Below, in pieces: positions 4,832 through 16,775 of a DNA stretch of 32,000 bases. The notes beneath the pieces are model-generated. The model saw only the letters and a list, made by a program, of their open reading frames with translations. It was not told the origin of the DNA and ran no database searches. The DNA lies in assembly GCF_000148385.1 (NCBI RefSeq), contig NC_014537.1, forward strand, positions 450,001-482,000, given 5' to 3'. Numbering within the stretch: the stretch's first letter is position 1; each line of letters opens with the position of its first letter. Made by a program: the position numbers and the translations under genes. This DNA is from Vulcanisaeta distributa DSM 14429 (GTDB lineage: Archaea > Thermoproteota > Thermoprotei > Thermoproteales > Thermocladiaceae).

Positions 4832-6669
4832 GAGGGTTCAAGCAGTGTGGCGTAGTTGCTGTTGAATATGATGTTAGGGTTGTTTAATGGGTTATACACT
4901 ATTGTTGGCGGTATGCCTGGGCCTAAGGTTACGTAGTAGGCCTTGCTCAGTGTCCCATTGTAGACTACCACGTATACGTTCACGCTGCTTTCATTATATA
5001 TGAAGCGTATCATGGGCAATGCTTGGGCTATCACGTTAGTTGGATATGCGCCAACGCCGCCTAGGCTAGGCGTATACCACGGTAATGTACCCATTATCGG
5101 CGAATATACGTATAGTGGACCCGTGTTGCTGGGCAGTAGGTTGTTTAACAACAATGTGCATTCATACTCACTCCTGGTTAATGGGGGTACGTTGTAGTGG
5201 TGTATCTTGGCGTACTCAATGGGTGATATGCTTGGGTCGTATGAGGCTATGGGGACTATCGCCACCAGTAGCAGTATTAAGAGCATTAGAATAGCTTTAC
5301 TTTTATCCTTAAGCCTTGTTAAGGCAAGGCCCACTATCGGGAAGGTTAGGGGTATTGCGGTGTAGGCATTCACCGTTATTGGATATGTTGCCGTAAATAT
5401 CCTCTGCACGGCGGCTATCCCTGGTACAACAAGACCCACCACTAGGAGTGTCATTAACCACACGTTCTCCCTCCTCTTCCTAAACACGACATAAAGTAGG
5501 TACGATGCGGCTATTGAGAATGCCAGCGACCACGCATAGGCCAATACTGGGTTAGCCCCACTGTATAGGAAGTGGTATTGAACACCCTTAACCTTAGTTA
5601 TGCTTCTTACGAATAATCTAATTAATATTTGCCATATTGCCTGGTTTAAGCTATCCAACATTGGGTATACATACGTGAAGTAGCCCTGCGTGTATAGGAA
5701 GACCAGTAGGGTAACTACCGTATATACTGCGAATAGGAATAGTATTAGGCCTTTCCTAGCCGAGGTAGCCCCCTGGTGAATTGGCTTATATAGCCTCAGG
5801 GCCCTTAAGACATACCATGCCACTATGAATGAAATAGGCACCAGCAGCATTAGTAGGGCTGTGGTTAGTGAGAGCACGGCCAGTATGTAGCTCAGGGCGC
5901 TGATTACTGCGTTTTGCGCCGGTTCAAAGCCCTCTATAACGTTGATTAACGTCACCGTGGAGATTAGTACGAATAGGTTGGATAGCCATAGGTGTGGGTT
6001 GAGGGTTAATGCAGTCTCAGGGGTTACCCCTACGAAGAATGCCGCCAGCACGGATGCTGCCTTATTTTGCGTCAGCCTGAGCGTCAGCATGTATATGACC
6101 ATGTCGTAGACTATGGTGAATACCGCATACCAAATACCCCATACCAGTGACGAATACCAGGGTAGGTTAAGGACCTTAGCCATCATAACCACCTGAGCCA
6201 CCTGGGCTGGGAATGGGTTATAGGCCGGGTTGTAGGCGAAGCTGAAGCTCCAATGCCCAGCCATATACATATCCCTATACATCTCTATCCCCTCTCCCCA
6301 ACTAATGCCAGTGCTTGGCAATTGATCATTTAGCAGTATTATGTTAAGCATTATTACGGATGACAGGGCCTTGGAGATCATGGAGTCCGTTGGCTTAGAT
6401 GCAATCATTGGTATTATCGTTAATGCGGCTATTGCCGTTATGGCTACTTCGTAAATCATCGGGTAACCCGCCCTAATGGGCGTGGCTAAGTTAAGGAACA
6501 GCGTGACTAAGGCCAATACGTCGGCGGCTGTGAGCATCGCGTTGGCCGTCCCATGGCTCAAGGGTGGCTCACGGTCACCTTTATTATGTGTTAATATGAG
6601 CAGTGTCGTGAATAGTACCGTAAATAGGCCCGTTAATAGCAGTAACGCTGATGGGAAGCTTATACCCAC
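4828..6669 (-). CDS. Multi-pass integral membrane protein; candidate glycan polymerase or GT-C-like enzyme (function inferred from context only)
   Basis: A 613-aa ORF with a GTG start. It has many hydrophobic segments over roughly the first 480 aa, followed by a soluble C-terminal domain of about 130 aa containing the N-x-S/T sequons NES and NGT. It sits inside the GT cluster. Confidence 0.7.
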   Translation of the reverse strand: MGISFPSALLLLTGLFTVLFTTLLILTHNKGDREPPLSHGTANAMLTAADVLALVTLFLNLATPIRAGYPMIYEVAITAIAALTIIPMIASKPTDSMISKALSSVIMLNIILLNDQLPSTGISWGEGIEMYRDMYMAGHWSFSFAYNPAYNPFPAQVAQVVMMAKVLNLPWYSSLVWGIWYAVFTIVYDMVIYMLTLRLTQNKAASVLAAFFVGVTPETALTLNPHLWLSNLFVLISTVTLINVIEGFEPAQNAVISALSYILAVLSLTTALLMLLVPISFIVAWYVLRALRLYKPIHQGATSARKGLILFLFAVYTVVTLLVFLYTQGYFTYVYPMLDSLNQAIWQILIRLFVRSITKVKGVQYHFLYSGANPVLAYAWSLAFSIAASYLLYVVFRKRRENVWLMTLLVVGLVVPGIAAVQRIFTATYPITVNAYTAIPLTFPIVGLALTRLKDKSKAILMLLILLLVAIVPIASYDPSISPIEYAKIHHYNVPPLTRSEYECTLLLNNLLPSNTGPLYVYSPIMGTLPWYTPSLGGVGAYPTNVIAQALPMIRFIYNESSVNVYVVVYNGTLSKAYYVTLGPGIPPTIVYNPLNNPNIIFNSNYATLLEPS

Positions 6670-6816
6670 AGCCTTAACACCTCTTCAGCAACCTCGCCCC
6701 AGGTTGGGGTCTTTTCCTTCTTTAATAACTAAAGGTACTTTCCCATAATACCTATCATCAATTAACTTAATCATAGCCTCGTTAAGCTTAATCCTTCTGT
6801 AGATTCCGCTATCATG

Positions 6817-7947
6817 CTACTTAATGACCTCGTTATAATATTTAATCGTTAACTTAGCCACATCACTCCATCTAAGTAGCCTTTCCCTGACCTTTTTAGC
6901 CTTATCCACGTAATCTTTGTAATATTCACTATTTAGCATTTTAATCATAGCCTCTGCAATGCTGGTCTCGTTTAGTTCTGTTATTACTATATGTTCCATG
7001 CTAAGCCTCGGTATTGAACCAATGCCTGTCGCTATTAATGGTTTAAGCCTGGCGGCAGTTTCATTAGCGATTAATGGGTAACTCTCGCCAGCATGCCTCG
7101 ATGGTAAGATCACGGCCCTTGACGCGTCTATTAACGCTATTTTATCGTCCTCATTGATATATCCAAGCATTAAAACTAGGCCATTAAGTCTAAGTTTATC
7201 AATTAATTTACTTAAGTAACTAATATATTTACGGTCTCCTTTCCCAGCTAACACCAGTCTTATATTATCAAATTTATTAATAACATATTTAAAAGCTTTA
7301 ATAAGCATATCAATACCCTTAGTCCAATGAAGCCTACCAATGTAGGTAAATATCTCATCGGTGATCCCATATTTATTCCTAAAGGCCCAGGCCCTACTGG
7401 GCTCCTCTAAGTATTCATCATCAATGCCATGGGGAATAACCGCTGAATCCACACCATACCTACTCATCAATAATTCTCTTTCATAATTATTCGTAACGAA
7501 TAAAAGCCTTGACAATTTAATGAACCTTCTGGTTAAGTATACCTGGTACTTGAAACCTAGTGTTCTCATTAATAGCCTGTAGTGATTATGTAGATAATCC
7601 ACTGCAATGAGGTATGTAATGATAGGCTTACCGTATTCATAAGCCTTTCTCTCGATGATGTATGTAAATAAGCTATTTTGATTATACCCCTGAATTATAT
7701 CGGCATTCTTCAATAACTCATTAGGTACATTTATCGGTATAGAAATCTCACGGTAATTAGGTATGTGAATTATCGGTACTCTATGAACCCTCAATATGCC
7801 ATCACCCTTAAAGCCATCATTAATATTGCCAGTCAAGACGTAAACCTCATTACCAAACTTAGTCTGCCAAAGACCTAACCTATTCATTGTGACTTCAATA
7901 CCACCAACTACTGGAAAATAATTATGATGGATATGTATGATCCTCAT
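6817..7947 (-). CDS. Glycosyltransferase, group 1 (GT4); AT-rich gene
   Basis: A 376-aa ORF. The N-terminus MRIIHIHHNYFPVVGGIEV and the segment SRHAGESYPLIANETAARLKPLIAT fit the GT4 pattern. Confidence 0.85.
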   Translation of the reverse strand: MRIIHIHHNYFPVVGGIEVTMNRLGLWQTKFGNEVYVLTGNINDGFKGDGILRVHRVPIIHIPNYREISIPINVPNELLKNADIIQGYNQNSLFTYIIERKAYEYGKPIITYLIAVDYLHNHYRLLMRTLGFKYQVYLTRRFIKLSRLLFVTNNYERELLMSRYGVDSAVIPHGIDDEYLEEPSRAWAFRNKYGITDEIFTYIGRLHWTKGIDMLIKAFKYVINKFDNIRLVLAGKGDRKYISYLSKLIDKLRLNGLVLMLGYINEDDKIALIDASRAVILPSRHAGESYPLIANETAARLKPLIATGIGSIPRLSMEHIVITELNETSIAEAMIKMLNSEYYKDYVDKAKKVRERLLRWSDVAKLTIKYYNEVIK

Positions 7948-8156
7948 AATATCATCCTCCTCTCAATCTCAATACCCTTAAGATTATCAGGCACCTCATC
8001 CGGTGTACCGTGTCCATTCATGTAGGCTTTACTTGCTATAATGTTAAGCGTCTCCGGCCCAGTGTACCTTGCCACATCCATCCTATGCTTAATTAAGGCA
8101 TGCGTTGAGTACGCTACTTGGTAATCCAGCCTATTGCCGTGTGTATGGCTACGCAT
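7944..8156 (-). CDS. Small hypothetical ORF (70 aa, or 45 aa from the internal Met)
   Basis: The ORF ends in an ATGA overlap with the GT4 start at 7947. It overlaps the upstream ORF by 43 nt. No recognisable motif. Confidence 0.25.
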   Translation of the reverse strand: MRSHTHGNRLDYQVAYSTHALIKHRMDVARYTGPETLNIIASKAYMNGHGTPDEVPDNLKGIEIERRMIL

Positions 8157-8497
8157 GGCTCACCCGTGGCTGTTATGAAGCCATCAGCGATCATTACTGC
8201 CATGGGCTCTATATAGACGTCGAACACCCTCCCATCAACCCTAACCACAGCGTGGGCCAATTCAACCAATTTGAAGGAGGCGGGCCTGTAGGGCACGTTA
8301 TCACCGCATAGGCCAACCACCTGCTGTGGCTGTTTACTAAACCTAGCCCCCACGTCAATGAGGGCCGTTATTTCGTAGCCCTCGCCAACCCTAGCTGCCT
8401 TAACGCCAACTATCCTATACCTAATAGTCACGTAATCCTCAACCTCAATTAGGCCTGGCTGGCTGTCTAGGATCTCTACATCAAGTGGCGTTACCAT
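8114..8497 (-). CDS. Hypothetical protein, predicted beta-rich
   Basis: Track ORF 8114..8539. I prefer Met15 (MVTPLDVEILD) as the start, which overlaps the upstream ORF stop by 17 nt. No family recognised. Confidence 0.45.
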   Translation of the reverse strand: MVTPLDVEILDSQPGLIEVEDYVTIRYRIVGVKAARVGEGYEITALIDVGARFSKQPQQVVGLCGDNVPYRPASFKLVELAHAVVRVDGRVFDVYIEPMAVMIADGFITATGEPCVAIHTAIGWITK

Positions 8498-8780
8498 AAA
8501 CCCCCACTTTAACCCTCCTAAACACGTTAACAACCTCACCGCGGTCGCTCACCCACCTCTTAACCTCAAGGTCGACACCCCATACGCCGTTATCGTCTGC
8601 GAATATTGCGAAGTTACCAACACCCTCAATAACGTACTTAACCTCACCATCCCTAAACCTAATAGACACAACCTCAACCGAGGCGTCATAATAAGCCCTA
8701 GCAACCGCCACCACAGGGGCCTGTGACCCAGAGTTAGTCACGACATTTGACTGTACATTACTCACCCACACACCCACCAC
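8481..8780 (-). CDS. Hypothetical protein (99 aa)
   Basis: GTG start at 8780, preceded by a GGAGGG Shine-Dalgarno-like motif (plus-strand ccctcc at 8785..8790). No family recognised. Confidence 0.45.
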   Translation of the reverse strand: MVGVWVSNVQSNVVTNSGSQAPVVAVARAYYDASVEVVSIRFRDGEVKYVIEGVGNFAIFADDNGVWGVDLEVKRWVSDRGEVVNVFRRVKVGVYGNAT

Positions 8781-8822
8781 TATACCCTCCAGTTAATTAA
8801 ACCTATCTAACATTACAAGCCC

Positions 8823-9377
8823 CTAACCAAGCACCCTCTTTAATTCACTCAACGCCTCCTCCAGATCACTACCCCACTTTACTCTAGTTTTTACCTCCTC
8901 TATTCTTCTTGTTAATTCCTTGATTAGTTCCATTGCTGCTTTTGCTGCTTCTTCCCTGTTTCTGAACTTTGATAACGCCATGTCTGGGTCTGGCCCGTTG
9001 TATTGGTAGTCGTGTAGGTCTAGGGCAGCGCTTGTGGTGAAGTATAACCCAACATACCCAACCTCCTCAAGCATCTGCGACAATGCTACCATTCTGGTGG
9101 TTGGAACCCTGGGAACAGCCTTATCCATTAACCACCTACGCTCCTCCTCAGTCTTAGCAACCTTAAGAAGATTATTGAGTTCAAGCCTTAGTAAAGCCGC
9201 CAAAAACGCCCTCCAAGCCTGAAAAGCCTTACCAGCCGCATTTCTAACCAAGCCCTCACTGAGGAACCTAATGGCTAGGTATGCCTCAACAAGTGCTTCG
9301 AGTAACCTGGCGCTCACGTAGTCCTCCGTGGTGAGTTTCGGCAGTGGTTTCTCGATTGTCTCGGTGCTCATACCCAC
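8823..9377 (-). CDS. PaREP1-family protein (intact copy)
   Basis: A 184-aa ORF. The N-terminal helix pattern FLSEGLVRNAAGKAFQAWRAFLAALL and the later LDLHDYQYNGPDPD match my recollection of the archaeal PaREP1/PaREP8 family (PF05942). A TATA-like CTTTTAAA lies about 22-29 nt upstream (plus strand 9399..9406). Confidence 0.8.
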   Translation of the reverse strand: MGMSTETIEKPLPKLTTEDYVSARLLEALVEAYLAIRFLSEGLVRNAAGKAFQAWRAFLAALLRLELNNLLKVAKTEEERRWLMDKAVPRVPTTRMVALSQMLEEVGYVGLYFTTSAALDLHDYQYNGPDPDMALSKFRNREEAAKAAMELIKELTRRIEEVKTRVKWGSDLEEALSELKRVLG

Positions 9378-9424
9378 CTAGTTGCTGGGCCTGGGTTTAA
9401 AAGCGCTCAATGCTCTGCTGGGCT

Positions 9425-10429
9425 TCATGTTACTTCCTGCAGGGCCTTCTTCACGGCTTCCCTGTGTATTGGTGTTTGCCATGCCACGTACCTACCAATG
9501 CCCAGCTCCCCATCCTTTTCTGGCGGTGGTGTGTCCACCCAGTAGTCTGGTTTTCTCTTGGGTAGGAAGTGGATGATGAGGTTCCTCTCGATTAACTCAT
9601 TGATTAATTCCCCGGGTGCGTTGAACCATAGGTAATCAGGGTCACCAACGGCCTCCCTAAGGTGACCCGCCCACTTCTTAATGAAGTCGGGTGATAGTTC
9701 CTTTTCCTTGGTGATTTTATCAATGATTTTACCTACGTCCCAGTTGGCGCTGTATAGGCTCTCTAGCATTGCTGGGTTTCCTCCGGTTATTCGCCAAACC
9801 TCTTCGAGGTCCGGCTTATCGCCGGGTAATTGCTCGTAGAGTTGCTTGAAGCCTTCCCTAGGCATGTTCCACATGGGTGTTGACCAAGCCCACCTATGCC
9901 TACCAATCTCCCTCAAACTCACACCCTCGCTCGTGGCTACTATCGTGACTATCCTCTCATAATGCTCGGGTGGGTACTCAATGAGGTTTAGCAGTGCCTT
10001 CACGTACAATGCAGACTCCTTAACGCCAATGACTTGGAATGCATCATCGACTATCACGGCTACCTTGCCCCTGGTCACCCTAATCAACTCCTTGGCGAAG
10101 TCAAAGGCAAGCCAAGCCAACCTACCGAGGGCATTTTGGGCAAGAGCCTCCCTAACCATCCTAAGGAATTCATCCCTGAGACTAGCCACACCGAACTCGG
10201 CAAGAACCTCCTTATTAATTGGGTTAACGTAAATAACCTCAAAACCAAACTCCCTAAGCAACACCACAGACTGCAGAAGCCAAGCAGACTTACCACAACC
10301 CTCAGGGCCATAAATGACCTGCACCGGGTATGTGCCTTTCCCAGCCCACTCCTCAATGAGTTTAAGGGCGAGGTCCCTATCCACGAATTCCACTTGTTGA
10401 TTTGCGAAGTTGAGTTTGACCCTCTTCAT
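9425..10429 (-). CDS. Archaeal AAA+/STAND-like ATPase (Arch_ATPase / COG1672-like), paralog A1
   Basis: A 334-aa ORF. It has FVDRD, then Walker A GPEGCGKSAW, Walker B VAVIVDDAFQ, and the conserved C-terminus PPPEKDGELGIGRYVAWQTPIHREAV. Confidence 0.85.
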   Translation of the reverse strand: MKRVKLNFANQQVEFVDRDLALKLIEEWAGKGTYPVQVIYGPEGCGKSAWLLQSVVLLREFGFEVIYVNPINKEVLAEFGVASLRDEFLRMVREALAQNALGRLAWLAFDFAKELIRVTRGKVAVIVDDAFQVIGVKESALYVKALLNLIEYPPEHYERIVTIVATSEGVSLREIGRHRWAWSTPMWNMPREGFKQLYEQLPGDKPDLEEVWRITGGNPAMLESLYSANWDVGKIIDKITKEKELSPDFIKKWAGHLREAVGDPDYLWFNAPGELINELIERNLIIHFLPKRKPDYWVDTPPPEKDGELGIGRYVAWQTPIHREAVKKALQEVT

Positions 10430-10986
10430 TGTTTATCCTTAGTTGGGTTTTTCCTGGGTTCATTTAGTGCCTCCTCTAGGTCGTTGCTCCACCTTACTCT
10501 TGGCTTCAACTCCTCAATGCGCTTGGTCAGCTCCTCTATGAGTAGTTTTACGTCCACCGCAGCCTCCCGCCTACTCCTATACTTCGACAGCGCCAAATCC
10601 GGGTCCGGACCATTGTACTGATAATCGTGTAGTTCCAGGGCCACCGCTGTCCAAGCAGATAACGCTTCATAATCAATCTCCTCAAGCATTTGCGCCAGCA
10701 CCTTCATCCTGCCCGTTGAAACCCTAGGGACAACCCTCCCCATTAATCACCCACGTACTTCATCAGTCCTAACCACCTGGAGCAACCTATCAAGCTCAAG
10801 CCTCAGTAATACAGCCAATAAAGCCCTCCAGGCCTGGAAGGCTTTGCCCGCCGCGTTTCTGACTAGGCCTTCATTAAGGAATTTGATGGCTAGGTTTGCC
10901 TCGGTTAGGGACTCCAGGAGCCTGGCATTTATGTAGTTCTCCGTGGTTGGCTTGGGTAGGGGCCTCTCGAGGTTTTCAGCGCCCAT
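10426..10986 (-). pseudogene. PaREP1-family gene interrupted by an in-frame TGA (10747..10749) at a conserved Trp position
   Basis: ORFs 10747..10986 and 10426..10743 are in the same frame. Together they align without gaps to the intact copy at 8823..9377. The stop falls exactly where the intact copy has W: RRWLMDKAVPRV versus RG*LMGRVVPRV. Confidence 0.8.
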
Positions 10987-11010
10987 GCCCCGAGCCTTCA
11001 GTGGGATTCC

Positions 11011-12027
11011 TCACATTAATCCCTGCAATGCACTCCTGACTGCTTCCCTGTGCAGTGGTGATTGCCACGCGACGCGCCTGCCAATCCCCAGCTCTGGGTC
11101 CTTCTCCGGCGGTGGTTGATCGATCCATAGGTATTCATCCCTCCACTGCGGTATTTCGATTATGAGGTTTAGCTCGATTAGCCTATTCATTAGTGGTATT
11201 CTTTCCCTGCTCATGAGTGTGTCTGGGTCGTTGATTGCCTCATCAAGCCAACGCTTTTCTTCACTGGTAAGTGAGTCTATGAATGCGTCAAGGCCCTTCT
11301 CATCACGCATATCCCTAATGACGGCCTTCACACCCCAACCAGCATTGTAAAGCCTCTCCAACATCCTCGGATTTCCACCCGTCAATTTCCAGACCTCCTC
11401 GAATGGCGGCTTATCGCCGGGCAACTGATCATACAACTGCCTGAACCCATCCCTAGGCATATTCCACATAACCCTTAGGTTAGCCCACGTGTGCCTTCCT
11501 ATCTCCCTCCTCGACACGCCCTCGCTCGTTGCTGCTATTGTGATTATTTTCTCGTAGTGCTCGGGTGGGTACTCTATTAGGTTGAGTAGTGCCTTTACGT
11601 ATAGGGCTGATTCCTTTATGCCGATTACCTGGAAGGCGTCGTCAACGATGATGGCTATTTTTCCCCTGGTCGCCTTAATCACGTCATAAACCACATTATA
11701 TGCTATCCAGGCAATCCTCGCTAGGGCATTCTGAGCAATGGCTTCCTTAATTAGTCTCAGGAACTCATCCTTAAGGCTGTTGATGCTTATCTCGGCGAGG
11801 GCAAGCCTATTGACGGGGTTAACATAAACAACCTCAAAACCAAACTCCCTAAGCAACTCAATGGACTGAAGCAACCAGGCGGTCTTACCACAACCCTCAG
11901 GCCCCAAGACAACCTGGACTGGGAAGGTACCCTTCACAGCCCATTCCTCGGCAACTCTCCTGAGGGCCGAGTCTCTATCAACGAATTCTATTTCCTTGCC
12001 TGCGAAGTTGAGTTTGACCCTCTTCAT
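11011..12027 (-). CDS. Archaeal AAA+/STAND-like ATPase, paralog A2
   Basis: A 338-aa ORF with Walker A GPEGCGKTAW, Walker B IAIIVDDAFQ, and C-terminus PPPEKDPELGIGRRVAWQSPLHREAV. Confidence 0.85.
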   Translation of the reverse strand: MKRVKLNFAGKEIEFVDRDSALRRVAEEWAVKGTFPVQVVLGPEGCGKTAWLLQSIELLREFGFEVVYVNPVNRLALAEISINSLKDEFLRLIKEAIAQNALARIAWIAYNVVYDVIKATRGKIAIIVDDAFQVIGIKESALYVKALLNLIEYPPEHYEKIITIAATSEGVSRREIGRHTWANLRVMWNMPRDGFRQLYDQLPGDKPPFEEVWKLTGGNPRMLERLYNAGWGVKAVIRDMRDEKGLDAFIDSLTSEEKRWLDEAINDPDTLMSRERIPLMNRLIELNLIIEIPQWRDEYLWIDQPPPEKDPELGIGRRVAWQSPLHREAVRSALQGLM

Positions 12028-13043
12028 GGCTTAGTCTCCCCTAGTACCTTCCTGATTGCTTCCCTGTGTATTGGTGTTTGCCATGCCACGTACCTACCAA
12101 TGCCCAGCTCCCCATCCTTTTCTGGCGGTGGTTCTCCGATCCACAGGTATTCCTTCCTCTCGGGTATATCATCAATTATTAGGTTTAATTCGACGAGTTT
12201 GTCCATGAGAGGTATCCTCTCCCTATTCATTAGGGTGTCTGGGTTTTCGGTGGCTTCCTGGAGCCAGGATTTCTCGGTGTTGGTGAGGGATGATATGAAC
12301 GTCCTTAGTCTCTTTTCGCTGATTATATCGCTGATTACCTTATCCGTGTTCCACCTGTTCTCGTAGAGGTTTCCCAGCATCCTCGGGTTACCGCCGGTTA
12401 GCTTCCACGCTTCCTCGAGGCTTGGCTTATTGTCGGGTATTTGCTCGTAGAGTTGCCTAAAGCCGTCCCTCGCCATGTTCCACATGATGTCTAGGTGGGC
12501 CCACGTGTGCCTTCCTATCTCCCTCCTCGACACGCCCTCGCTGGTGGCTACTATTGTTATTACCCTCTCGTACTCGGCTGGTGGGTACTCGATTAGGTTG
12601 AGCAGTGCCTTCACGTACATTGCCGATTCCCTAACGCCAATCACCTGGAATACGTCGTCTGCGAGTATGGCTACCCTGCCCCTCCTCGCCTTTATTAATT
12701 CATTAATTACGTTATAGGCTATCCACGCAATCCTCGCCAGGGCGTTTTGGCTAATCGCCTCCTGGGCGAGCCTGTAGAGCTCGTTTCTTAGGTCCTTAAT
12801 CCCAACTTCAGCGTAGACGCGCCCGTTGAGTGGGTTTATGTAGATCACGTCGAAGCCATAATCCCTAAGCAACTCCACAGACTGCAGGAGCCAAGCCGTC
12901 TTACCACAACCCTCAGGCCCTAGGACAACCTCCACAAGCCTCATGCCCCTATCAACCCACTCATCAATGCGTTTGAGGGCTATCTCCCTGTCCGTGAACT
13001 CAACCTGCAGGTCTAGGGCCAGGGGTAGTTTAATCCTCCTCAC
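12024..13043 (-). CDS. Archaeal AAA+/STAND-like ATPase, paralog A3
   Basis: A 339-aa ORF with Walker A GPEGCGKTAW, Walker B VAILADDVFQ, and the conserved C-terminus. It overlaps A2 by 4 nt. Confidence 0.85.
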   Translation of the reverse strand: MRRIKLPLALDLQVEFTDREIALKRIDEWVDRGMRLVEVVLGPEGCGKTAWLLQSVELLRDYGFDVIYINPLNGRVYAEVGIKDLRNELYRLAQEAISQNALARIAWIAYNVINELIKARRGRVAILADDVFQVIGVRESAMYVKALLNLIEYPPAEYERVITIVATSEGVSRREIGRHTWAHLDIMWNMARDGFRQLYEQIPDNKPSLEEAWKLTGGNPRMLGNLYENRWNTDKVISDIISEKRLRTFISSLTNTEKSWLQEATENPDTLMNRERIPLMDKLVELNLIIDDIPERKEYLWIGEPPPEKDGELGIGRYVAWQTPIHREAIRKVLGETKP

Positions 13044-14044
13044 ATTAACCCCTGCAACGCCCTCCTAACCGCCTCTCTATGCAGTGGCGACTGCCACGCG
13101 ACGTAGCGGCCAATCCCGAGTTCCTCATCCTTCTCAGGCGGTGGTGTGTCCACCCATTGGTCCGGGTCCCTGCTGGGTATTCCGTAGATTATTAGGTTCC
13201 TCTTGATGAGTTCATTGGCGAGTTCCCTGGGCCCCTCATTCCATAGGTAATCCGGGTCGCTAAGTACGGCCTCCATCTCCCTCCTCCACCGCCTAATGAA
13301 CTCCCTAGTCACTTCCCTATCCAGGATTAACTGCTCAATGACCTTATCAGCATTCCAACCCCTCTCGTAGAGTCTCTCGAGCATCCTCGGATTCCCACCA
13401 GTCAATCCCCACACCTCCTCGAATGGCGGCTTACTGCCCGGTATCTGCTCATAGAGTTTCTCGAAGCCCTCTTTCGGCATGTTCCAAATTGGCGTGATGT
13501 CCGACCACGAGTGCCTTCCAATCTCCCTTAGGCTGACGCCCTCGCTTGTTGCGGCTATTGCTATCATGCTCTCATAATTGGCTGGCGGGTGTTCGAGCAG
13601 TCCAAGTAGTCCCTTGACGTATATGGCTGCCCTGTCTAAACCAATCACTTGAAAGGCATCATCGACGATCACGGCTAGCCTGCGCACCCTAGCCTCAATG
13701 GCCTCCCTGGCAACGTCAATCACAGCCCAGGCAACCCTACCCCAGGTGAGTTGGCTCGTGGCCTCGCGGATTATATCCATTAGTTTATTCCTCAGTTTTT
13801 CAATACCAAGCTCAACAATGAATGAACCCTCGATGGGGTTTACGTAGATTACCTCAAACCCATGATCCCTCAGCACCTCAGCCGACTGCATTAGCCAAGC
13901 GGTCTTACCACAGCCCTCCGGGCCATAGACTACGTGTGGAAGGGCCATACCCCTATCAATCCATTGCTCAATCCATTTAATCGCTGAATCCCTATCCACG
14001 AAGTTAATCCTTACGTTAGCGAGCCTAAGCTCAATCCTCCTCAT
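13040..14044 (-). CDS. Archaeal AAA+/STAND-like ATPase, paralog A4
   Basis: A 334-aa ORF with Walker A GPEGCGKTAW, Walker B LAVIVDDAFQ, and the conserved C-terminus. It overlaps A3 by 4 nt. Confidence 0.85.
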   Translation of the reverse strand: MRRIELRLANVRINFVDRDSAIKWIEQWIDRGMALPHVVYGPEGCGKTAWLMQSAEVLRDHGFEVIYVNPIEGSFIVELGIEKLRNKLMDIIREATSQLTWGRVAWAVIDVAREAIEARVRRLAVIVDDAFQVIGLDRAAIYVKGLLGLLEHPPANYESMIAIAATSEGVSLREIGRHSWSDITPIWNMPKEGFEKLYEQIPGSKPPFEEVWGLTGGNPRMLERLYERGWNADKVIEQLILDREVTREFIRRWRREMEAVLSDPDYLWNEGPRELANELIKRNLIIYGIPSRDPDQWVDTPPPEKDEELGIGRYVAWQSPLHREAVRRALQGLM

Positions 14045-15057
14045 TACTTCAGGGATTCAAGGACCCTCTTAACGGCTTCCCTATGTATTGGGCTTTGCCA
14101 TGCGACGTACTTGCCGATCCCTAGTTCCTCATCCTTTTCTGGTGGTGGTTGGTCTATCCATAGGTACTCCCTCCTCTCGGGCACATCATCAATTATCAGG
14201 TTCAATTCAACCAGTCTGTCCATGAAAGGTATCCTCTCCCTAGCGAATAACGTGTCAGGATCATTAACCGCCTCCATGAGCCAAGCCCTCTTGACGCTTG
14301 AGAGAGACCTTGCGAATCGCCTTAACTTATTTCTATTAATCACCTCATTAACCACCTTATCAACACTCCAATTATTCTCATAGAATCTCTCCAACATCCT
14401 TGGGTTTCCTCCGGTTATTCGCCAAACCTCGTCGAACGGTGGCTTATCGCCGGGTATTTGATTATACAACTGCCTAAAGCCTTCCTTCGGCATGTTCCAC
14501 ATGGGCATTATGTCGGACCACTCATGCCTACCAATCTCCCTCAAACTCACACCCTCACTCGTGGCTACTATCGTGACTATTTTCTCGTAATCCCCAGGTG
14601 GGTGTTCTATTAGCCCGAGCAGTCCCTTGACATATACGGCCGCCTTATCAAGGCCTATGACTTGGAAGGCGTCGTCGACGATAACCGCCAGTCTACCCCT
14701 CCTCATCCTTATTAATTCCCTGGCTAGGTCAATGATCACCCACACAGCCCTGACCCAGGCGTCGCTGGTGGCCTCACGGAGGATCTCAACCAGTCTCTTC
14801 CTAACATCCTCAACGCCCACCTCAGCCATGAACCTCTGCTCAATGGGGTTTATGTAGATCACGTCGAAGCCATAATCCCTAAGCAACTCCACAGACTGCA
14901 GGAGCCAAGCCGTCTTACCACAACCCTCAGGCCCATAGATGACCTTCGGAAACCCAGCACCCTTCTCGGCCCATTCCTCAACGCGTCTCATTGCTAGGTC
15001 TCTATCCACGAACTCAACCGCCAGGCTTAGCGCTAGGGATAGCCTTATCCTTCTCAC
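14044..15057 (-). CDS. Archaeal AAA+/STAND-like ATPase, paralog A5
   Basis: A 337-aa ORF with Walker A GPEGCGKTAW, Walker B LAVIVDDAFQ, and the conserved C-terminus. It overlaps A4 by 1 nt (TAATG). Confidence 0.85.
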   Translation of the reverse strand: MRRIRLSLALSLAVEFVDRDLAMRRVEEWAEKGAGFPKVIYGPEGCGKTAWLLQSVELLRDYGFDVIYINPIEQRFMAEVGVEDVRKRLVEILREATSDAWVRAVWVIIDLARELIRMRRGRLAVIVDDAFQVIGLDKAAVYVKGLLGLIEHPPGDYEKIVTIVATSEGVSLREIGRHEWSDIMPMWNMPKEGFRQLYNQIPGDKPPFDEVWRITGGNPRMLERFYENNWSVDKVVNEVINRNKLRRFARSLSSVKRAWLMEAVNDPDTLFARERIPFMDRLVELNLIIDDVPERREYLWIDQPPPEKDEELGIGKYVAWQSPIHREAVKRVLESLK

Positions 15058-15467
15058 GCCAGTCCTGGCCTATACATCATTGGTGTGTTTAGCCACATTA
15101 GGCCTATGTTTATCATGTCCTGGACCCTCCTAACCACTGCCCTAACCCAGCCAAGTCTCTCGGTTAGTCTCCTACCCACTAGGTAGGCTATGAACCTCAC
15201 CTTCCTCATTAGTACTAGGCTTAGCGCCTCTATTACTGCCTCCCTGAGCATTTCCAGGGCCTTCGGTGACTTGAACCTGAGACCTCGCCTTAGGTATGGA
15301 ATTGCCGCCTCGAGGAGGCCCCTGCGAAGTGAGTTGACCCTCCACCAAACGCCGAGTCTAATGGCTACCCTCCTTATTGACTGTATTAGTTGCAGGCTGA
15401 CTGCATTTATGGTGTTGTTCAGGAAGTCCCTTATGAGTCCCAGGGCCTCCTCGGGCGGTATAAACAT
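15054..15467 (-). CDS. Hypothetical small basic (Arg-rich) helical protein; first gene of the ATPase chain
   Basis: A 137-aa ORF that overlaps the A5 start by 4 nt. A TATA-like TTAAATAA lies 27-34 nt upstream of its ATG. No family recognised. Confidence 0.6.
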   Translation of the reverse strand: MFIPPEEALGLIRDFLNNTINAVSLQLIQSIRRVAIRLGVWWRVNSLRRGLLEAAIPYLRRGLRFKSPKALEMLREAVIEALSLVLMRKVRFIAYLVGRRLTERLGWVRAVVRRVQDMINIGLMWLNTPMMYRPGLA

Positions 15468-15493
15468 TATTAATTATAGGCTGTACCAAGCCA

Positions 15494-15501
15494 TTATTTA
15501 A
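15494..15501 (-). promoter_or_regulatory. TATA-box-like element (TTAAATAA on the minus strand) upstream of the 137-aa ORF and ATPase chain
   Basis: Plus-strand ttatttaa at 15494..15501 lies 27-34 nt upstream of the ATG at 15467. That spacing fits a leaderless crenarchaeal transcript. Confidence 0.45.
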
Positions 15502-15523
15502 GCATTGCCTTGGTGATGAGTCG

Positions 15524-15871
15524 TTATCCACGCCCAGGCCCATTGACCCTCCTCACCTCCATGGCCGCCGGTATCGCCATTAACCCCGCGGTCAGGGCAG
15601 CCCAGTATATTGGGTGTGGTGTTATTGTTATCGCCATCAGCGCGCTGGCCCCACCGTAGTTTACGCCCATGACGCCGCTGCCCATGAGGACCAGTGGGTA
15701 CCTCGCGGGTACGTGGTAGAGGCTAAGTACGTAATTGGCTACGTAGTATATTATGACTGGGGATACTAGGTATGGTATCGACAGCAGAGCCAGTGTGTAG
15801 TTCCTTATTGGTCTACCTATCATGGCCACTAGGTATGTGTTCCACGCCAGGGTCCCTACGTAATGACTCAA
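15524..15871 (-). CDS. Small hydrophobic membrane protein
   Basis: A 115-aa ORF with 3-4 hydrophobic segments, immediately downstream of and overlapping the GT2 gene. The true start may be the internal Met at 15823. Confidence 0.5.
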   Translation of the reverse strand: MSHYVGTLAWNTYLVAMIGRPIRNYTLALLSIPYLVSPVIIYYVANYVLSLYHVPARYPLVLMGSGVMGVNYGGASALMAITITPHPIYWAALTAGLMAIPAAMEVRRVNGPGRG

Positions 15872-16775
15872 TCGCCTTCCTGAGCCTGTACTCCATCCTC
15901 TTCATGTATATTGCCATGGCCGCCATTCCGAGGAATTGTAGGCCGATTAACGTGAGCATTATGGCAACCAAACCCTTCAAGTAATACTTAATCCCATAAA
16001 ACAGGTACCAATAACCAACGTAGGCACCTAGGGCGAGCCCCGGTATGAGTAGTAATGCGCCTATTAGGAATAGGATTAGCATGGGGTTATACCTTGTGGT
16101 TAGTCTCACCATGTCGCCGAATATCGCCAGGCCATCCTTTACACCGAGCTTCTTCTTACCAACCCTACGCCTATACTCAATGGGTATCTCCCTAATCACC
16201 CTGCCCGTACTAACCATGTGAGCCGCTATATGAGCCTCAATACTGAACCCACCAACCTCAGCAACCGCGTCCCTCAAGGCCTCAACCCTGACTACGTACA
16301 TGCCACTTAATACGTCGTGAAGCCTCGTGTCGAAGAGCAGGTTGAAGACCCTAGTCAACAACCAATTACCAAACCTATAAATGAGCCTCTGACTACCGGG
16401 CAAAGGCCTCCTGACACCAATCACCTCATCAGCCCCAGTCCTCACGATCTCCTCGACCAACTCCAAAACGTGCTTGGCTGGGTATGAGTAGTCGCCGTCC
16501 ATCACGAGCATGTACGGCGTGCTAACGTACTTGAGCGCAGTCCAGATGGCCATGGCCTTACCCCTACCCTCCTGCTGAACAACCCTAACACCATACCTCA
16601 AAGCCACATCCACAGTACCATCAGTGCTACCACCATCAACAACGAGGACCCTATCCCTGGGAACACCAACTCCAATGAGTTCATCGAGGACGAGCCCAAT
16701 ACCCTTAACCTCGTCTCGCGTTGGTATGACCACGGTAACTAGGTCCAGCAATTTATTGCCAACGCCACTAGCCAT
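15813..16775 (-). CDS. GT2 glycosyltransferase, dolichyl-phosphate mannose/glucose synthase-like, with C-terminal TM helices
   Basis: A 320-aa ORF with VVIPTRDE, VVDGGSTDGT, the VMDGDYSY (DxD) motif, and a hydrophobic C-terminal tail. Confidence 0.85.
   Translation of the reverse strand: MASGVGNKLLDLVTVVIPTRDEVKGIGLVLDELIGVGVPRDRVLVVDGGSTDGTVDVALRYGVRVVQQEGRGKAMAIWTALKYVSTPYMLVMDGDYSYPAKHVLELVEEIVRTGADEVIGVRRPLPGSQRLIYRFGNWLLTRVFNLLFDTRLHDVLSGMYVVRVEALRDAVAEVGGFSIEAHIAAHMVSTGRVIREIPIEYRRRVGKKKLGVKDGLAIFGDMVRLTTRYNPMLILFLIGALLLIPGLALGAYVGYWYLFYGIKYYLKGLVAIMLTLIGLQFLGMAAMAIYMKRMEYRLRKAIESLRRDPGVEHIPSGHDR

Follow-up and report, generated by a model that had tools for sequence, protein, structure and literature searches.

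The 32,000-nucleotide (nt) stretch of DNA analysed here, called the window, comprises positions 450,001 to 482,000 of contig NC_014537.1 of Vulcanisaeta distributa DSM 14429 (assembly GCF_000148385.1). On its minus strand, at 9425-15057 in the window coordinates used throughout, lies a tandem array of five paralogous ATPase genes, A1 to A5, whose sequences form a mosaic. The five open reading frames (ORFs) reported in a preliminary description of this DNA are all present and intact, and each encodes a member of the ATPase_2 family PF01637 (222-238 bits against a cut-off of 33.2, E 1e-66 to 1e-70, covering model positions 1-225 of 225). The genes have the same orientation and no internal stop, encode 334-339 amino acids (aa) each, and are pairwise 62-70% identical in nucleotide and 54-66% in protein sequence overall.

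The array belongs to a cassette whose order of transcription is ORF137-A5-A4-A3-A2-PaREP1(split)-A1-PaREP1. Neighbouring genes mostly overlap by 1-4 nt, the exceptions being a 24-nt gap between A2 and the split PaREP1 and a 47-nt gap between A1 and the intact PaREP1, and the whole string from ORF137 to PaREP1 is probably co-transcribed. The genes, the variable segments and the shared runs discussed below are listed in Table 1.

Table 1. Features of the ATPase cassette, in window coordinates.
Feature	Coordinates	Strand	Remarks
ORF137	15054-15467	-	first gene of putative operon; stop overlaps A5 start by 4 nt
A5	14044-15057	-	ATPase paralog, central type II, winged-helix class Y
A4	13040-14044	-	ATPase paralog, central type II, winged-helix class X
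A3	12024-13043	-	ATPase paralog, central type I, winged-helix class Y
A2	11011-12027	-	ATPase paralog, central type I, winged-helix class Y
Second PaREP1 (HEPN-T) copy	10426-10986	-	matches PF05942; split by in-frame TGA, 10747-10749
A1	9425-10429	-	ATPase paralog, central type I, winged-helix class X
PaREP1/PaREP8-family gene	8823-9377	-	intact, 184 aa; PF05942 E=6e-28; last gene of cassette
Variable winged-helix segment, A1 (X)	9542-9736	-	residues 232-296
Variable winged-helix segment, A2 (Y)	11128-11331	-	equivalent of A1 segment
Variable winged-helix segment, A3 (Y)	12144-12347	-	equivalent of A1 segment
Variable winged-helix segment, A4 (X)	13157-13351	-	equivalent of A1 segment
Variable winged-helix segment, A5 (Y)	14161-14364	-	equivalent of A1 segment
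A3/A5 exact 89-nt run	12832-12920 = 14846-14934	-	P-loop, codons 43-72; permutation maximum 38 nt
A1/A3 exact 75-nt run	9456-9530 = 12058-12132	-	PPPEKD...HREA tail; permutation maximum 28 nt
A2/A3 exact 44-nt run	11483-11526 = 12499-12542	-	sensor block, codons 169-183; permutation maximum 34 nt
A5/A1 exact 33-nt run	14524-14556 = 9896-9928	-	inside ~57-nt stretch with one mismatch

The preliminary description sorted the five proteins by two motifs, one in the central region and one ahead of the conserved C-terminus. The central motif is found as type I, [KR]ESA[LM]YVKALLNLIEYPP, in A1, A2 and A3, and as type II, D[RK]AA[IV]YVKGLLGL[LI]EHPP, in A4 and A5; the C-terminal motif of class X, DPDYLW..[AG]P.EL.NELI.RNLII, is found in A1 and A4. 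The class Y motif, DPDTL..RERIP.M..L[IV]ELNLII, marks A2, A3 and A5 as described save for two details, in that A3 reads NPDTL and the K of the '..K.WL' element is shifted by one residue in A5. Class Y has a 3-residue insertion relative to X. All four combinations do occur: I+X (A1), I+Y (A2 and A3), II+X (A4) and II+Y (A5). The division into two central types holds among A1-A5 but not family-wide, where there are many intermediates instead of two discrete states.

Mosaic structure and conversion tracts

The pairwise homoplasy index (PHI) test, re-implemented and applied to 288 informative sites, gave z = -8.7, with none of 2000 permutations as low; third codon positions alone gave z = -4.0. 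Breakpoints were sought by parsimony dynamic programming in which each segment picks among the 15 five-taxon trees, with 200 permutations. With 2 segments tree length improved by 30 steps (permutation maximum 23), with 3 by 41 (maximum 26) and with 4 by 51 (maximum 32). The best topologies were ((1,2),3,(4,5)) for codons 1-158, ((1,5),4,(2,3)) for codons 158-240, ((1,4),2,(3,5)) for codons 241-309 and ((1,3),5,(2,4)) for codons 311-343. The mosaic is finer than a two-by-two scheme, with at least four segments of different topology.

Neighbour-joining (NJ) bootstrap support was 97-100% for the splits A4/A5 and A1/A2 over codons 1-158, 100% for A1/A4 and 79-98% for A3/A5 over codons 241-309, and 94-96% for A2/A4 in the tail codons. 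Trees for the three segments named in the preliminary description (codons ~1-120, 120-230 and 230-end) were likewise in strong bootstrap conflict. Segment phylogenies are incongruent and breakpoints are found.

Mean pairwise nucleotide identity among the five genes reaches at least 0.8 in three blocks: codons 41-66 (P-loop), 164-195 (sensor) and 309-329 (tail). The exact runs shared by pairs of paralogs include 89 nt between A3 and A5 and 75 nt between A1 and A3, which we read as recent conversion tracts. Recent tracts coincide with the three blocks. This placement fits a homology-dependent mechanism, and conversion would itself also keep the blocks alike.

Conversion tracts can be seen directly when the array is compared with its sister arrays, as the preliminary description had proposed to do. 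Vulcanisaeta souniana has a cassette (locus L075) that agrees with that of the window in gene order and type combinations; its ATPase genes are called S1-S5. Window positions 8900-15060 and L075 positions 5371-11556 are 99-100% identical in nucleotide sequence outside discrete patches. Homology is confined to ~8900-15850, and the high identity stops near 8900. At the other end, the flank at 15061-15850, which includes ORF137, is 74-87% identical apart from one 100-nt block at 97%, and beyond it the window and V. souniana are unrelated. Over this flank, the identity between V. souniana and a metagenomic locus (L082) is about 80%. Taken together, the whole cassette looks as if it has been exchanged recently between species, the divergence baseline being the ~0.8-kb flank (ORF137) and the third genome, L082, not a genome-wide value. 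NadA was tried as a baseline, and no V. souniana ortholog was found among its matches or in its 90% cluster.

Within this one operon, divergence between window and V. souniana orthologs ranges from 0.6% (A4; 6 of 1002 nt differ from S4) through 3% (A3), 5% (A1) and 8% (A5) to 11% (A2), and the differences are tightly clustered. A5 and S5, for example, are 91% identical in protein sequence, with their differences in patches. In the best-resolved patches, one ortholog matches a paralog of its own genome.

The clearest tract is in S2, whose codons ~42-150 are S1-like over ~250-350 nt. A2 alone differs at 68 sites, S2~S1 identity in the patch is 0.91-0.98, S1-specific variants in S2 outnumber A1-specific ones 6:2, and a GENECONV-style z is 15. 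Across the tract S1 stays 92-95% identical to A1 and S2 falls to 60-75% against A2; S1 is thus unchanged, so that the event was non-reciprocal. In a tail patch, A1 equals A3 in the window and S3 equals S5 in V. souniana (identity 1.00 over a 38-nt patch of ortholog difference), and pairing of different genes in the two genomes requires at least two independent events. Over codons ~160-180, A5 departs from A1 at a single position in ~57 nt; S5 there resembles S2, and S5 is only 60-75% identical to A5 around the 33-nt run that A5 shares with A1.

Synonymous variants show the same pattern. In the P-loop and sensor blocks, those common to A3/A5 and to A2/A3 differ from those common to S3/S5 and to S2/S3, and species-specific shared synonymous sites number 4-8 per pair in the five best pairs (1/2, 1/3, 2/3, 2/5 and 3/5) against 0.5-3.1 expected. 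Such species-specific sharing of variants by paralogs is the classic signature of concerted evolution. A third array, that of Vulcanisaeta sp. JCM 16161, has a 303-nt tract common to its ATPase genes Je and Jf (z = 12.6).

Further type-I/Y paralogs lie at other loci, P0013 and P0021 in the window genome and P0011 in V. souniana. In the ATPase domain they share 80-85% identity with A1 and A2, and they are candidate donors for those A5 patches that have no donor within the array.

The winged-helix segment in two classes

AlphaFold2 (AF2) models of A1 (class X) and A2 (class Y), with predicted local distance difference test (pLDDT) scores of 93.9 and 93.8, show an AAA+-type core, a helical lid with the sequence GGNP and a C-terminal winged helix. 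GGNP is invariant; Walker A (GPEGCGK[ST]) and Walker B ([VIL][IL][VA]DD) are so in A1-A5 and 72 homologs. In the Y model the first helix of the winged helix is split in two; its topology is otherwise that of X. The variable segment corresponds in the models to the winged-helix helices, and the wing and terminal helix are the most conserved part. The segment is 65-68 codons long and lies between conserved blocks (...TGGNPRML and PPPEKDxELGIG..VAWQ.P.HREA). Mean pairwise nucleotide identity among A1-A5 is 0.14-0.6 within it, against at least 0.8 in the flanking anchors.

To place the two classes, 170 relatives were aligned, from Vulcanisaeta, Caldivirga, Pyrobaculum, Thermoproteus and Ignisphaera and from metagenome-assembled genomes (MAGs) of Desulfurococcales, Sulfolobales and Nezhaarchaeales, and the homologs were classed as X or Y by alignment. 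Most groups contain both X and Y, so both classes are ancient. The uncoupling of class from ATPase domain is apparent across this set: the X/Y character changes once on the winged-helix tree and 36 times on the N-domain tree, compared with 47 times with random labels. Identity of the N-domain between clades is 0.538 for the same class and 0.539 for different classes, and within a clade but across classes it is 0.591, higher than the 0.538 across clades within a class, which excludes a strictly vertical history of two old lineages. Identity of the variable segment, on the other hand, follows class (0.33 vs 0.47-0.52).

Individual pairs show the same uncoupling. Between A3 (Y) and P0026 (X), identity is 83% in residues 1-225, where more than 60 residues in a row are the same, falls to 20-45% in the segment and recovers to 80% in the tail. 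Likewise, compared at the protein level, A1 (X) and V. souniana P0011 (Y) are 81% identical in the N-domain, 5-40% in the segment and 80% in the tail. The type I central state is specific to Vulcanisaeta and Caldivirga and occurs with both X and Y; Pyrobaculum and Nezhaarchaeales have central variants of their own that are common to their X and Y copies. These central variants again indicate that the ATPase domain has been homogenised within lineages, across winged-helix classes.

The reassortment itself is old. The A4 segment is closest to those of proteins from P. aerophilum, Vulcanisaeta sp. JCM 16161 and V. distributa JCM 11216, which places A4 in an old II+X lineage. V. souniana has the same combination as the window at each position, and synonymous divergence (dS) in the segment is high (about 0.9 for A1-A4). 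From the classes conserved by position, the affinities of A4 and the high segment dS, it follows that reassortment is older than the speciation of Vulcanisaeta and that its products were inherited. Three of the combinations, I+X, I+Y and II+X, occur in the Vulcanisaeta sp. JCM 16161 array, none of whose six copies is II+Y. The proposal in the preliminary description that the C-terminal module is being reassorted therefore stands for old exchange and fails for recent X/Y swaps among these five copies, since V. souniana has the same class at each position.

The ratio of nonsynonymous to synonymous divergence (dN/dS), by a coarse Nei-Gojobori estimate, is 0.2-0.56 in the segment against 0.07-0.23 in most comparisons of the nucleotide-binding domain, which indicates relaxed constraint on the segment. 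No value exceeded 1, and hence there is no sign of positive selection at this coarse resolution, at which dS is saturated for most pairs. It is plausible that the segment serves as a specificity or partner-binding module, as the preliminary description had suggested, since it makes up the helices of the predicted winged-helix domain.

How the mosaic arose

The A1-A5 mosaic very probably arose by homologous recombination between tandem paralogs, acting on two time scales. Old exchanges would have moved the ~65-68-codon segment for the winged-helix helices, in its two divergent classes, with the conserved flanking blocks (TGGNPRML and PPPEKD...HREA) serving as homology anchors that guided the exchange. 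Such exchanges would have uncoupled winged-helix class from ATPase domain and generated the four combinations that the five genes inherited. Ongoing, non-reciprocal gene conversion, in tracts of ~30-350 nt that fall mostly in the P-loop, sensor and tail blocks, would then keep re-patterning the copies in each lineage. Functionally, the variable segment may set specificity for a ligand (DNA or protein), and the ATPases may act together with the adjacent HEPN-like PaREP1 protein.

Several points weigh against this account. We re-implemented the tests with parsimony, distances and permutations in place of GARD or RDP; the site-order permutations ignore rate autocorrelation along the gene, and the family trees are NJ trees built on saturated distances. 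Some divergent patches of A5 (in codons 1-18, 32-55 and 80-108) have no donor inside the array. No recent X/Y swap was found between the window and V. souniana arrays, and we infer the step that made the four combinations from phylogenetic conflict. As to partnership with PaREP1, the gene lies downstream in about one third of the Thermoproteaceae loci examined and in none outside that group, and in PADLOC the ATPases, PaREP1 and ORF137 had no match save a marginal one to mad8 for A4 (E=1.3e-3).

An alternative that we consider unlikely is that the patches are not products of intragenomic conversion and are instead remnants of a diverged resident array, left after patchy import of a foreign one. 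The drop in identity from cassette to flank, set against the level seen with the third genome, does bespeak recent interspecies exchange, and the donorless A5 patches would fit. Resident remnants, however, would not be expected to match a paralog of their own genome, as the best-resolved patches do (S2~S1, A1=A3, S3=S5 and A5~A1).

It is less probable still that the array is a programmed diversification device, in which frequent and recent shuffling of modules, like that of antigenic-variation cassettes or plant nucleotide-binding leucine-rich-repeat (NLR) clusters, would yield novel pairings of winged helix and ATPase domain over ecological time. Many tracts have gathered over a background divergence of ~0.6%, the locus has 1, 5 or 6 copies, the predicted fold is like that of signal transduction ATPases with numerous domains (STAND), a HEPN gene is adjacent, and the array of Vulcanisaeta sp. 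JCM 16161 contains an inserted AriA/OLD-like ATPase, all of which would suit such a device. None of the recent tracts, however, moves the X/Y segment, and they mostly make copies more alike; class by position is stable between window and V. souniana. Moreover, every copy is intact and lies in the same orientation, silent donor cassettes are absent, dN/dS stays below 1, and none of the known defence models fits.

Serial duplication and subsequent ordinary divergence, with shared motifs due to convergent or parallel substitution and no recombination, is very improbable. The shared blocks do lie in constrained regions (P-loop, sensor and tail), where protein similarity would be expected, but the identity reaches synonymous sites, as seen in the 89- and 75-nt runs, the third-position PHI result and the species-specific synonymous variants. 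S2, furthermore, differs from A2 at its 68 sites while matching both S1 and A1, and class Y, defined by a 3-residue indel and many other positions, has a single origin on the winged-helix tree. The claim of the preliminary description that the paralogs recombined rather than simply diverged is thus borne out by PHI, the breakpoint search, the segment trees and the sister arrays alike. An assembly artefact from reads mis-joined across repeated genes can practically be discounted: tandem repeats are well known for giving rise to chimeric assemblies, but copies 62-70% identical are too divergent to collapse, two V. souniana and two Vulcanisaeta sp. JCM 16161 assemblies have the same architecture, and the Logan assemblies of read sets SRR3924012 and SRR060963 both reproduce A4 and both its junctions.

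Homologous recombination between tandem paralogs, by interlocus gene conversion and older cassette-like domain exchange, is a mechanism already known, and the present case is notable for its clarity. With two genomes at ~99-100% cassette identity, tracts, donors and lengths (30-350 nt) can be read directly, and the apparent frequency of conversion relative to point mutation is unusually high. The pair thus offers a natural measure of conversion against mutation rate in a hyperthermophile. For PF01637, a large family of unknown function, it reveals a discrete exchangeable winged-helix segment in two ancient versions, with the consequence that whole-protein phylogenies and orthology calls mislead.

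Neighbouring genes and known systems

PaREP1/PaREP8 is a family that belongs to the HEPN-T clade (PMC3710099). PaREP1 has no nucleotidyltransferase partner and no identified antitoxin (PMC3632139), and lacks the canonical arginine of the Rx4-6H motif (PMC3710099, PMC3632139). In the split copy of the window, TGA stands where the intact copy has a conserved Trp codon (TGG), an ATG two codons past it reopens an ORF of 105 aa, which shares 4 nt with the A1 start, and the V. souniana counterpart has one more 1-nt indel. The split copy is probably a pseudogene, its C-terminal half possibly still expressed. The two PaREP1 copies are 71% identical in nucleotide sequence at a repeat spacing of 1615 nt, from which it follows that ATPase and PaREP1 were duplicated as a unit; this unit is a 1.6-kb tandem duplication, and the remaining ATPases repeat each ~1.0 kb.

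An ATPase gene is followed directly downstream by a PaREP1 gene on its own strand twice in the window and also in V. souniana, Vulcanisaeta sp. JCM 16161, L082/83, V. distributa JCM 11216 (L039 and L057) and P. oguniense (L008 and L016); at another P. oguniense locus (L026) the PaREP1 gene lies 550 nt downstream. The recurrent pairing offers a concrete partner candidate for a HEPN family listed in the literature as partnerless. At the other end of the cassette, ORF137 encodes an Arg-rich, all-helical protein of 137 aa whose homologs, at 82-94% identity, are confined to Vulcanisaeta apart from one weaker relative noted below, with no match in Pfam, NCBIfam or PADLOC. Homologs lie directly upstream of the ATPase gene or genes in L001, L030, L075-77 and L082; this includes the array in each Vulcanisaeta genome examined and, as a weaker homolog, a Sulfolobales MAG (L030). 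ORF137 may be a third component of the module.

Copy number at the locus is one in L082, five in the window and V. souniana, and six in Vulcanisaeta sp. JCM 16161 (L077). L082 (positions 6001-7575; metagenome ERZ1669247) is syntenic, with the same upstream genes (543-aa, 196-aa and ORF137-like) and PaREP1 downstream, and its single ATPase gene resembles gene 3 at its 5' end, where the first 670 nt match at 80.8%, and gene 1 at its 3' end, where the last 210 nt match at 75%. This pattern is consistent with expansion or contraction by unequal crossing-over, in either direction. In L077, at 6215-7793, the third and fourth ATPase genes are separated by an insertion that consists of a 404-aa ABC-type ATPase and a 128-aa ORF. 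The inserted ATPase belongs to AAA_15, and its best PADLOC matches are AriA, PD-T4-4_A, NsnB and GajA; by these matches, a defence-type gene has landed inside the array.

The cassette, which apparently moved between species recently, is flanked by glycosyltransferase genes, GT4 at 6817-7947 on one side and GT2 at 15813-16775 on the other, and there are others further upstream. G+C content is markedly low in some stretches, where it falls to 0.34-0.38 (3-5 kb and 7-8 kb), compared with about 0.51 for the array. At this place the glycosylation genes of V. souniana and Vulcanisaeta sp. JCM 16161 are different and non-homologous. The whole looks like a hypervariable surface-glycosylation island. 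Around the cassette, a search for repeats detected the paralog repeats alone and no flanking direct repeats hinting at an integration site, and a viral contig scan gave two very weak P-loop matches only, with no sign of viral or proviral origin. Opposite the ATPase genes, antisense ORFs of 80-195 aa (10034-10621, 9981-10232, 12100-12366 and 14111-14383, all on the plus strand) recur in several paralogs at matching positions. Most likely they are not genes but a by-product of codon usage on the sense strand.

Database searches offered few pointers to function. NCBIfam gave no meaningful match for the ATPases, PaREP1 or ORF137, and literature on PF01637, COG1672 and DUF234 yielded nothing on function, the results being swamped by unrelated DUF234x. 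A search of PDB with the A1 sequence found no match. In Foldseek, archaeal Orc1/Cdc6 structures (1w5t, 2qby and 1w5s) came out on top for both models, with E about 5e-6 and probability 1.0; their template-modelling (TM) scores of 0.35-0.42 reflect a differing domain orientation in the predicted models. The highest TM-scores, 0.44-0.48, were those of CED-4 (2a5y), the NRC4 and wheat resistosomes (9cc9 and 9h2l) and Avs3 (8dgc). The STAND profile PF25199 (nSTAND_NTPase5) scored 18-26 bits, below its cut-off of 34. The winged helix is the last domain of A1-A5, and Pfam detects no additional domain in them, be it a sensor repeat or an effector. By the models, then, these proteins resemble a minimal nucleotide-binding and oligomerisation module; we do not claim STAND membership.

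A more far-reaching possibility, which we raise as a speculation with low odds, is that ORF137, the ATPase array and PaREP1 form an unrecognised archaeal conflict or immunity module, in which STAND-like ATPase sensors or switches would control a HEPN (PaREP1) effector, the X/Y segment would set recognition, and conversion, unequal crossing-over and cassette transfer would re-assort the repertoire. If true, it would be an archaeal counterpart of NLR-cluster evolution and would supply the missing partner of the orphan PaREP1 HEPN family. An NTPase-regulated HEPN module with a winged helix setting ligand specificity may serve as a working model, though a doubtful one.

Compared with known systems, the predicted models share with Orc1/Cdc6 (1w5t, 1w5s and 2qby) an AAA+ core, a lid and a C-terminal winged helix. 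There is, however, no sequence relationship beyond the P-loop fold: Cdc6/Orc profiles had no match in Pfam or NCBIfam, and NCBIfam gave only sub-threshold RFC and DnaA. Unlike Orc1/Cdc6, moreover, the present genes form multi-copy tandem arrays beside HEPN genes in a glycosyltransferase-rich variable region. Like HEPN-MNT-type two-gene modules, the ATPase gene has PaREP1 directly downstream in several independent Vulcanisaeta and Pyrobaculum loci; here, though, a nucleotidyltransferase partner is lacking, and the linkage is facultative and lacking outside Thermoproteaceae.

In pilE/pilS and vlsE antigenic variation, segmental conversion transfers sequence from silent or truncated donor cassettes into a single expression site. 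Segmental conversion between related copies makes mosaics there as here, but the copies in this array are full-length genes in one operon, with neither silent or truncated donors nor a single expression site. Plant NLR (R-gene) clusters consist of tandem NTPases with nucleotide-binding domain, lid and winged helix, which are chimeric by sequence exchange and variable in copy number. The arrays resemble these clusters and STAND arrays in their tandem chimeric members, variable copy number and predicted fold, yet their proteins have only 334-339 residues, with no sensor repeats or effector domain, and it is the winged-helix domain, not a repeat domain, that is exchanged.

The closest parallel is interlocus gene conversion between paralogs. 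Archibald and Roger are said to have described archaeal thermosome paralogs as a further example in 2002. Among prokaryotes, it is documented for the duplicated mtrA genes of methanogens (PMC4632066), and long-lasting concerted evolution for 26 genes (PMC6053082). As in such cases, transfer in A1-A5 is non-reciprocal and affects parts of genes, variants are shared within a genome, and trees conflict along the gene. What differs here is that five or six probably co-transcribed copies form a patchwork instead of being homogenised, that many tracts fall within a background divergence of ~0.6%, and that the winged-helix helices are kept in two ancient classes, as an exchangeable cassette.

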